DNA of 64,000 bases, taken from assembly GCF_056712565.1 (NCBI RefSeq), contig NZ_CM160072.1; one strand, 5' to 3'. Under the pieces are notes generated by a model. The model was given only the letters and a program-made list of their open reading frames with translations. It was not told where the DNA came from and made no database searches. Positions 30,985 through 32,487 of this stretch are shown piece by piece. Every line of letters starts with the position of its first letter. Position 1 is the first letter of the stretch. Position numbers and translations under genes: made by a program.

Positions 30985-32487
30985 TTACCTTCTTCTCCCC
31001 CCCAGCAAACTCCCCAACATCCCGCGCACAATCTGATTCGTCACCTGGCGGGCGGCGCTTTTTGCCATTGTTTGCACCACACCATCTTTCTTCCCGCCGC
31101 GTGGTCCGGTAGTGCCAAACAAAATATCCTTCAATCCACCGAGAATACCGTCATCCACCGCCACCTCTTTCCCTTTCGCGGGAGGATTATTTTGCTGCTC
31201 GATACTGGCCTGAAAGCCTTTTTGCAACATCTCATAGGCGGATTCCCGGTCCACGTCATCCTCGTACTTGCCATACACCGGGGAGTGGTTAATCAAGCCA
31301 TTGCGCTCATCTTCCGTCACCGGCCCCATTCGTGAACAGGGGGCAATCACCATCGCCCGTTCCACCACTGAAGGGCTTCCTTTCGCATCGAGAAACGAGA
31401 TTAACGCTTCGCCCGTCCCCAGTTCCTGGATTGCCTTTTCGGTATCAAATGTTGGATTGGCCCGCATGGTTTGCGCCGCTGCCTTCACTGCTTTCTGATC
31501 TTTAGGCGTAAAAGCACGCAAAGCGTGTTGAACGCGATTACCGAGCTGCCCGAGCACGTTATCCGGGATATCTGACGGGTTTTGCGAAACGAACCAGACG
31601 CCCACGCCTTTTGAGCGAATAAGCCTTATCACCTGCTCAATCTTATCCAGCAGTACCTGCGGTGCATCGTTAAACAGCAGATGCGCTTCGTCGAAGAAAA
31701 ACACCAGTTTTGGTTTCTCCAGATCGCCCGCTTCCGGCAATTGTTCATACAACTCTGAAAGCATCCACAGCAGGCTGGCGGCGTACAGTTTCGGCATCTG
31801 GTAGAGCTTCTCGGCGCTGAGGATATTGATAACGCCTTTACCGTTGGCATCGGTGCGCATCCAGTCTTTGATATCCAGCATCGGCTCACCAAAGAAGTGT
31901 GCTGCGCCTTGCTGTTCCAGCGACAACAGCCCGCGCTGGATGGCACCAACCGATGCACTACTGATATTACCGTACTGATTCTGGAAGGATTTGGCGTTAT
32001 CGCCGATGTACTGGGTAATTGCCCGCAGATCTTTAAAGTCGAGCAGCAACAATCCCTGATCGTCAGCAATGCGGAAAATGATATTCAGCACGCCAGATTG
32101 CACATCGTTGAGATTCAACAGTCGTGCCAGCAACAGCGGCCCCAGATCCGAAACCGTCGCCCGCACCGGATGGCCTTTCTCGCCAAAGATATCCCACACC
32201 ACCACCGGATTAGTATGAGGTTGCCAGTCATTTACGCCGATATTTTTAAGCCTTGCGAGCAGTTTTTCCGAAGATGTACCTTCCTCCGCAACTCCCGTTA
32301 AATCACCTTTCACATCAGCCATAAACACAGGCACGCCGATTTCCGACAATGACTCCGCCAGTTTTTGCAGCGTAACGGTTTTACCCGTCCCCGTTGCGCC
32401 GGTAATCAGCCCATGGCGGTTAGCCATTCCCGGCAGTAAAAACAGTTCTGTGTCCGGCGTGCGGGCAATTAACAGGGGTTCGCTCAT
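30985..32487 (-). CDS. yjgR: DUF853 P-loop NTPase (HerA/FtsK-like ATPase)
   Basis: 500 aa; Walker A GATGTGKT near the N-terminus. Confidence 0.85.

Follow-up and report, generated by a model that had tools for sequence, protein, structure and literature searches.

The stretch of DNA analysed here (the window) comprises 64,000 nt of contig NZ_CM160072.1 (assembly GCF_056712565.1). The ORF listing contains yjgR as a single ORF of 500 amino acids starting with ATG on the minus strand, and the positions of its features are given in Table 1. The gene is 100% identical at the DNA level to alleles in several E. coli genomes, e.g. NU14 and SF-166 (megablast), and the reference annotation of the matching gene is [quoted passage not shown]. 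A sequence-only reading of the window had described a 500-residue P-loop ATPase carrying GATGTGKT at this place, and both the ORF and its translation agree with that description. The Shine-Dalgarno sequence is also kept in the idn-less E. coli strain CP131_Sichuan. A consensus scan gave no sigma-70 promoter upstream of yjgR. A CTCCAG-N8-CTGGAG hairpin overlapping the Shine-Dalgarno sequence was considered as a translational switch and was dismissed, as its stability was not above that of shuffled sequences (z 0.40).

Table 1. Positions of yjgR, its sequence motifs and adjoining elements in the window, and of phage homologues in their own records
Feature	Position	Strand	Description	Basis
yjgR CDS	30985..32487	-	500 codons plus stop; stop codon 30985-30987	ORF list, translation, megablast, Pfam
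Shine-Dalgarno GGAGGA	32494..32499	-	6 nt upstream of yjgR ATG	Read from sequence
R24-H25 in "NRHGLI" motif	32413..32418	-	12 residues ahead of Walker A lysine; candidate trans-acting arginine finger	
Walker A / P-loop GATGTGKT	32377..32400	-	aa 30-37	Translation
All-alpha insertion domain, conserved	31732..32166	-	aa ~108-252, within RecA-like core	
Walker B VFFFDE	31687..31704	-	aa 262-267	Translation and alignment
Sensor motif SQNP	31576..31587	-	aa 301-304; aligned with HerA "SQRP"	Profile alignment to 4d2i
Flexible linker, non-conserved	31150..31191	-	aa 433-446	Alignment, pLDDT
C-terminal tail module, conserved	30988..31149	-	aa 447-500; GPRGG loop, then predicted amphipathic basic helix	
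GC-rich hairpin AAGGGAGC-GAAA-GCTCCCTT	30840..30859		Between convergent lptG and yjgR	Read from sequence
Phage homologue loci	L092 4956-6305; L093 4935-6431; L095 1078-2289; L096 1456-2709; L094 4001-5365			

On one side of yjgR, lptF and lptG lie on the plus strand and converge on it; on the other, idnR-idnT-idnO-idnD lie upstream on the same strand as yjgR. The GC-rich hairpin between lptG and yjgR is, by its sequence, likely a bidirectional terminator common to both genes; it was not among the matches of the consensus scan. A REP-type palindrome occupies 30894-30965 in the same interval, and its Rfam matches (ES036/CssrF, 32.7 bits for a gathering score of 37.6, and also naRNA4) are below threshold. 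Farther upstream, the tRNA-Leu(CAA) gene leuX is located at 38832-38916 and is followed after ~260 bp by an ORF of 396 amino acids (39177-40367). In a 100%-identical reference, a tyrosine integrase and an IS3 transposase are annotated past leuX, so that a genomic island starts ~6 kb from yjgR.

The sequence-only reading had placed the gene between lptFG and the idn locus. This holds in the window; it does not hold as a general feature, the adjacency of idn being strain-specific. CP131_Sichuan lacks the entire idn operon and has ahr directly beside yjgR; the loci of Citrobacter and Enterobacter likewise lack idn and have ahr next to yjgR, with the lptG adjacency kept. Compared with locus L085, the idn locus of the window (idnK and idnDOTR, 32565-37400) represents an insertion/deletion polymorphism. 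Since the idn-containing and idn-less arrangements share no more than ~40 bp ahead of the yjgR start codon, and idn is absent elsewhere, the position of idn next to yjgR is regarded as accidental.

For a survey of neighbours, 80 orthologous loci (54-96% identity) were fetched from Gamma-, Beta-, and Alphaproteobacteria, Acidobacteriota, Verrucomicrobiota, Planctomycetota, one spirochaete, and one Clostridia MAG. ORF calling and BLAST clustering were applied to five genes on either side; the neighbour count rests on 69 loci, with 11 high-GC loci left out because the ORF caller lost yjgR there. No conserved neighbour was found among the 69 loci. The most frequent family occurred in only 13, all of Burkholderiales type, and the recurrent families were lineage-restricted and of housekeeping character; from reading their sequences, we take them to be YebC-like, PurD-like, NadD-like, HemF-like, and Upp. 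Three further clusters were dismissed as spurious antisense ORFs of high-GC DNA. In a Pfam scan of 37 tightly linked neighbours on the same strand, no family appeared more than three times, and no nuclease, Sir2, or methylase resembling the partners of defence HerAs was detected. Neither lptG nor idn recurs beside yjgR outside Enterobacteriaceae. Secretion-system genes were near none of the 69 loci, and the window contains no T4SS genes. The earlier claim that yjgR is a singleton without partner genes is borne out by this survey. At one metagenomic locus (L091), a DUF2780 gene (2256-2651) begins 23 bp after the yjgR homologue, and a T2SSF protein and three FHA/Yop-YscD_cpl proteins are encoded farther downstream; this arrangement is a single case, absent from the other loci.

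By megablast, yjgR was matched in 5425 of 5426 complete E. coli genomes, nearly always as a single chromosomal copy at the same locus; one genome gave no match. In E. coli Br_112_kylling, a frameshifted yjgR pseudogene lies by a truncated lptG at the end of the record (L004, 3001-4265). The dN/dS ratio of yjgR is 0.03-0.06, within E. coli and out to Enterobacter, and the gene is under strong purifying selection. In a tblastn search, the family was present on 31 of 72,556 plasmid records, most of which are Mb-sized replicons or mislabelled chromosomes; one of the records with the family is conjugative and three are mobilizable. With no partners, near-universal presence, this selection, and so few plasmids, the view that a defence role is unsupported stands. 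yjgR is a housekeeping core gene with a stand-alone product.

The synonymous variation of the gene is raised locally. Between the window strain and CP131_Sichuan, dS is 0.30 for yjgR and 0.05-0.17 for lptG, lptF, holC, pepA, ahr, and valS, and most E. coli alleles have only 90-95% DNA identity at 97-99% protein identity. This divergence may be due to a recombination hot spot, presumably located near leuX, or to low codon bias.

Residues 5-500 of YjgR match Pfam HerA_C/PF05872 (formerly DUF853) with an E value of 1.4e-252 (839 bits for a cut-off of 22), and the alignment spans positions 3-502 of the 502-position profile. This HMM classification agrees with the HerA/FtsK-like DUF853 assignment made earlier. 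The family is large, with 7780 clusters at 50% identity at E ≤ 1e-3 and 1663 at E ≤ 1e-30; it was reportedly defined by Iyer et al. in 2004. Matches to the functionally defined relatives are far weaker. YjgR approached no NCBIfam equivalog: the best was CedD (49 bits for a cut-off of 600), the HerA equivalogs gave 38.2 against 800 and 28.8 against 970, the anti-phage HerA equivalogs 17-18 against 800-850, and VirB4/TraC/TraD 15-31 against cut-offs above 500. Pfam FtsK_SpoIIIE (PF01580) scored 20.9 over 30 residues only, under its gathering score of 24. TrwB_AAD_bind slightly exceeded its cut-off (24.5 and 20.5, respectively), only over ~45 residues around the P-loop. No functional study of yjgR was found among the papers examined, in keeping with the earlier statement that YjgR has no assigned role.

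YjgR has a RecA-like core with Walker A and Walker B (D-E), a fold common to HerA, VirB4, TrwB, and FtsK, and structure comparison gave DNA motors (HerA, DndH, TrwB, and FtsK) as the closest folds. Residues 1 to ~435 make up a core of RecA-like P-loop ATPase type that contains an all-alpha insert; both Walker motifs are intact, and a HerA-type "RH" arginine stands ahead of the P-loop. Family alignments show Lys36 of Walker A to be invariant and Asp266 and Glu267 of Walker B to be nearly invariant. Arg24 is also nearly invariant and His25 is invariant, and in a profile alignment to 4d2i the pair aligns with "ARH" (Arg142) of Sulfolobus HerA. The trans-acting arginine-finger role of HerA Arg142 was reportedly described by Rzechorzek et al. 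in 2014. In the sensor motif, YjgR has Asn where SQRP of HerA has Arg. A HAS-barrel was not detected by Pfam, and in the predicted model only three short strands precede Walker A. No hydrophobic or TM segment was found in YjgR; the maximum KD19 in the tail module is 0.4.

A deposited structure, PDB 11kk ("HerA like helicase YjgR"), contains six chains of essentially the window sequence; no paper was found for this entry. Solely from its chain count, we infer that YjgR is a homohexamer. One preprint reports strong stabilization of YjgR by ATP in E. coli lysate, at peptides in or adjoining the P-loop; the protein is expressed in E. coli and binds ATP in the lysate. Apart from these data, yjgR appears in published lists such as the MazF regulon and RpoH/RpoE sigma-factor SELEX peaks; the latter lie within yjgR and cannot be read as its promoter. 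Nothing on YjgR was found in the MADS/mad8 and "HerA-like" literature, and the supplements of Min-system proteomics, thermal profiling, and PELSA papers held nothing decisive on it.

Conservation along YjgR was measured over 80 orthologues: the core has an identity of 0.63-0.73, residues 433-446 only 0.12, and residues 447-500 again 0.52-0.55. In this tail, Arg488 and Gly492 are conserved in 100%, Leu491 in 99%, and Gly489 in 96% of the 80 orthologues, and hydrophobic character is kept at positions 486, 487, 490, 494, and 495. The dN/dS ratio of the tail is 0.07-0.12, and the tail is also under purifying selection. In the AF2 model, pLDDT falls from approximately residue 435-440, and helices at 449-456 and 472-493 are predicted, undocked on the core and with pLDDT below 50.

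The same layout was seen in 82 divergent members with a complete core, in which the linker is 41-325 residues long across the family and frequently rich in Lys and Glu. The mean maximal hydrophobic moment of the last 22 residues is 0.60 in these members, compared with 0.435 for shuffled tails (Wilcoxon p 3e-12) and 0.36 for linker windows. The net charge is +3 or more in 64 of the 82 tails, and at least two terminal Lys or Arg residues are present in 60. The tail consensus can be written as ...KSxxRxxGxxxGRxxxRGxLGSLxxxx. YjgR itself carries a charge of +7 on the tail and -14 on the body, with GPRGG and GGRRR as tail elements; the hydrophobic moment of the E. coli tail is 0.53, no higher than that of its own shuffles. 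A profile of 36 tails was searched against 5.8 billion proteins and retrieved only short DUF853 C-terminal fragments; the candidates were seemingly limited in length, which makes the search uninformative on the portability of the tail.

In several homologues, the tail is replaced by another element. The metagenomic proteins P0140, P0163, P0246, and P0259 have a hydrophobic TM-like segment at its position (KD 2.3-2.8), and P0246 is present on five independent contigs. In rare members (P0142, P0152, P0245, and P0145), TerD (E 3e-50 and 3e-32), GYF_2, or Lipoprotein_Ltp repeats take the place of the tail. YjgR-like ATPases with 35-52% core identity are also encoded by tailed phages of Rhodobacter (24 records), Klebsiella, Rhizobium, and Xanthomonas; these copies are annotated merely as "AAA-ATPase", "ATPase", "DUF853", or hypothetical. 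Hydrophobic TM-like C-termini occur in four of the five phage lineages: RcZahn gp71 ends in VLGVLLIGVLIGVGLTLIMT (KD19 2.77), RcSalem gp87 in WPLTIAAVIYGPMILAGLI (1.79), gp059 of Klebsiella phage N133 has two hydrophobic segments followed by RPRRR (2.25), and Rhizobium phage RHph_X2_30 has two hydrophobic segments (2.51). The homologue of jumbo phage Xoo-sp13 retains MRGMLGVV, followed by a basic amphipathic end. Because three interchangeable solutions occupy one position, the C-terminus of the family is suggested to attach to the membrane, and the tail of YjgR, as far as its sequence indicates, probably tethers the protein to the inner membrane. The invariant Arg and Gly are no less compatible with a docking motif of defined sequence than with generic binding of lipids.

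Published localization data point in both directions. Proteomics of membrane preparations quantified YjgR from 17 peptides, and STEPdb lists the protein as "IM-cyto" (peripheral inner membrane; PMC7055658). In a published sucrose gradient, it peaks at intermediate density and not with inner-membrane vesicles, a pattern termed "soluble", and another proteomics dataset labels it as cytosolic.

Here, we tentatively propose that YjgR is a membrane-tethered hexameric ring translocase with a housekeeping function that probably acts on DNA, a composite to which we give slightly less than an even chance. Its parts differ in strength: the ring ATPase of housekeeping, non-defence character is much firmer than either the DNA part or the membrane part. 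YjgR would form a homohexameric ring with the ATP sites between subunits and Arg24 acting in trans, and ATP hydrolysis would drive a polymer through the pore at the centre of the ring. By analogy with HerA, DndH, TrwB, and FtsK, this polymer would most probably be DNA. DNA is taken as the most likely substrate because of these closest relatives and because the RcZahn homologue sits amid genes for a Cas4-like exonuclease, a RuvC-like resolvase, and a DNA ligase. The Asn in place of the SQRP arginine counts against this proposal, as do the VirB4 and EccC relatives, which do not pump DNA. YjgR would work without a nuclease or effector partner. Through its six flexible, basic, Gly-rich amphipathic tails, the ring would be attached to the inner membrane on the cytoplasmic side or kept close to that anionic surface; in other family members, genuine hydrophobic tail anchors would stand in place of these tails. 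The ring would then work on its substrate, DNA or something else, at the membrane; it would be the peripheral equivalent, tethered through its C-terminus, of FtsK and T4CP, which are anchored N-terminally.

The main competing explanation, which we consider rather unlikely, is that YjgR is a soluble cytoplasmic DNA or RNA helicase or translocase for repair, recombination, or nucleoid maintenance, with the tail serving as a nucleic-acid-binding (RG/RGG-like), autoregulatory, or partner-docking peptide. A tail of opposite charge to the body with Gly/Arg elements would suit such a peptide, and the invariance of Arg488 and Gly492, with Gly489 close behind, suggests specific recognition. The sucrose-gradient pattern, the name "helicase" chosen by the depositors of 11kk, and the DNA motors among the closest folds point the same way. 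However, the hydrophobic positions of the tail are conserved as well as the basic ones, and independent lineages have exchanged the tail for TM-like segments, which are incapable of binding nucleic acid. The recovery of YjgR from membrane preparations and its STEPdb class also argue against a soluble motor of this kind.

It is less probable still that YjgR is a membrane-associated motor for a substrate other than DNA, for example, one that extracts or unfolds proteins or peptides at the inner membrane. Relatives of this kind exist: VirB4 and EccC do not pump DNA, a role in pilin dislocation has been proposed for VirB4, and EccC/EssC have been shown to function in protein secretion. Most characterized members of the HerA/FtsK clade, however, move DNA; the surveyed loci are free of secretion-system genes, and the RcZahn copy has its DNA-metabolism surroundings.

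Very improbable is an origin of yjgR as an orphaned or decayed part of a mobile system for phage defence or conjugation (Sir2-HerA, DUF4297-HerA, MADS mad8, or T4CP/VirB4) that became fixed in the chromosome. PADLOC returned partial matches to YjgR (mad8 at 1.2e-19 and several HerA models at ~1e-13), the leuX integration hot spot lies ~6 kb away, synonymous divergence is raised locally, and a few phages carry homologues. Against these points, the gene keeps its locus across E. coli, with the one exception given above, and is syntenic in Citrobacter and Enterobacter, and its low dN/dS, the lack of partner genes in the window and at orthologous loci, the handful of transferable plasmid records, and the scores with the anti-phage equivalogs all speak against such an origin. 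A functional coupling to LPS export (lptFG) or L-idonate catabolism (idn) has next to no probability, as the adjacency in the window, of which the lptG side is kept in Escherichia, Citrobacter, and Enterobacter, is offset by the convergent orientation of lptG with the hairpin and REP element in between, by the absence of idn in CP131_Sichuan and the other two genera, where ahr adjoins yjgR, and by the fact that neither neighbour recurs beyond Enterobacteriaceae. YjgR is most probably not a component of anti-phage, conjugation, LPS-transport, or idonate systems.

The membrane-tethered ring may, more speculatively, be extended from YjgR to its family. The DUF853 proteins (at least 1,600 clusters at 50% identity and E ≤ 1e-30, in many bacterial phyla and some phages) could be an unrecognized group of C-terminally membrane-tethered ring motors of HerA/FtsK type, most with a conserved "RGxLG" basic amphipathic tail on a flexible linker and some, notably the phage copies, with a true tail anchor. 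Without partners, they would carry out a housekeeping function on DNA at the inner membrane, e.g. clearing or moving membrane-proximal or trapped DNA, and phages would have taken over such a motor for DNA transactions of their own. We regard this generalization as doubtful, more so than the proposal for YjgR itself.

The gene, its family, its superfamily placement, and the deposited structure were already known. New are the singleton status across phyla, the recognition of the idn neighbourhood as an indel, and the putative C-terminal tether, conserved in sequence and exchanged for TM-like anchors in phages. yjgR is one of the remaining conserved "y-genes" of E. coli and encodes a large, well-expressed ATPase that almost all strains and thousands of bacterial lineages possess. 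Its genuine singleton status removes the easy guesses of a defence, conjugation, LPS, or idonate component, and the conserved tail offers a testable route to the function of the gene rather than a new type of system. If the membrane tether is real, YjgR would add a third architecture, peripheral and C-terminally anchored, to the membrane-associated DNA pumps beside FtsK and T4CP, and the tail-anchored copies in some phages would be explained. If the model fails, yjgR stays an ordinary uncharacterized core ATPase.

YjgR differs in several respects from the characterized motors of its superfamily. Archaeal and Deinococcus HerA, the translocase of HerA-NurA end resection (PDB 4d2i, 7f6d, and 9x1l), shares only 17-19% identity with it and has an N-terminal HAS barrel, whereas Walker A of YjgR begins at residue 30 with no such barrel ahead of it. 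The partner genes of the HerA loci (NurA, Mre11, and Rad50) do not adjoin yjgR, the arginine of SQRP is Asn in YjgR, and HerA is without the long C-terminal linker and basic amphipathic tail. FtsK/SpoIIIE and the T4CPs (TrwB/VirD4) possess N-terminal TM anchors and operate in the context of the divisome or a T4SS; YjgR, in contrast, lacks a TM segment and would be anchored through a C-terminal amphipathic helix that follows a flexible linker, and neither a T4SS nor a dif/Xer context surrounds yjgR. Sir2-HerA, DUF4297-HerA, TdpAB, DndH/DptH, and MADS mad8 are invariably accompanied by an effector gene and occur in some strains but not in others, whereas yjgR is a partnerless core gene among housekeeping genes. 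The closest parallel to the tail is found outside this superfamily. MinD and FtsA carry a short, basic, amphipathic C-terminal helix behind a flexible linker on a P-loop or actin-like ATPase, and this helix is evolutionarily swappable with a TM anchor. Compared with these helices, the YjgR tail is longer (about 25-54 residues) and Gly-rich, has Arg488, Gly489, and Gly492 invariant or nearly so, and is only moderately amphipathic when the E. coli protein is taken by itself. As read from its sequence, it resembles them in being a predicted C-terminal basic amphipathic helix behind a flexible linker, with TM-like anchors in its place in the phage and metagenomic homologues.
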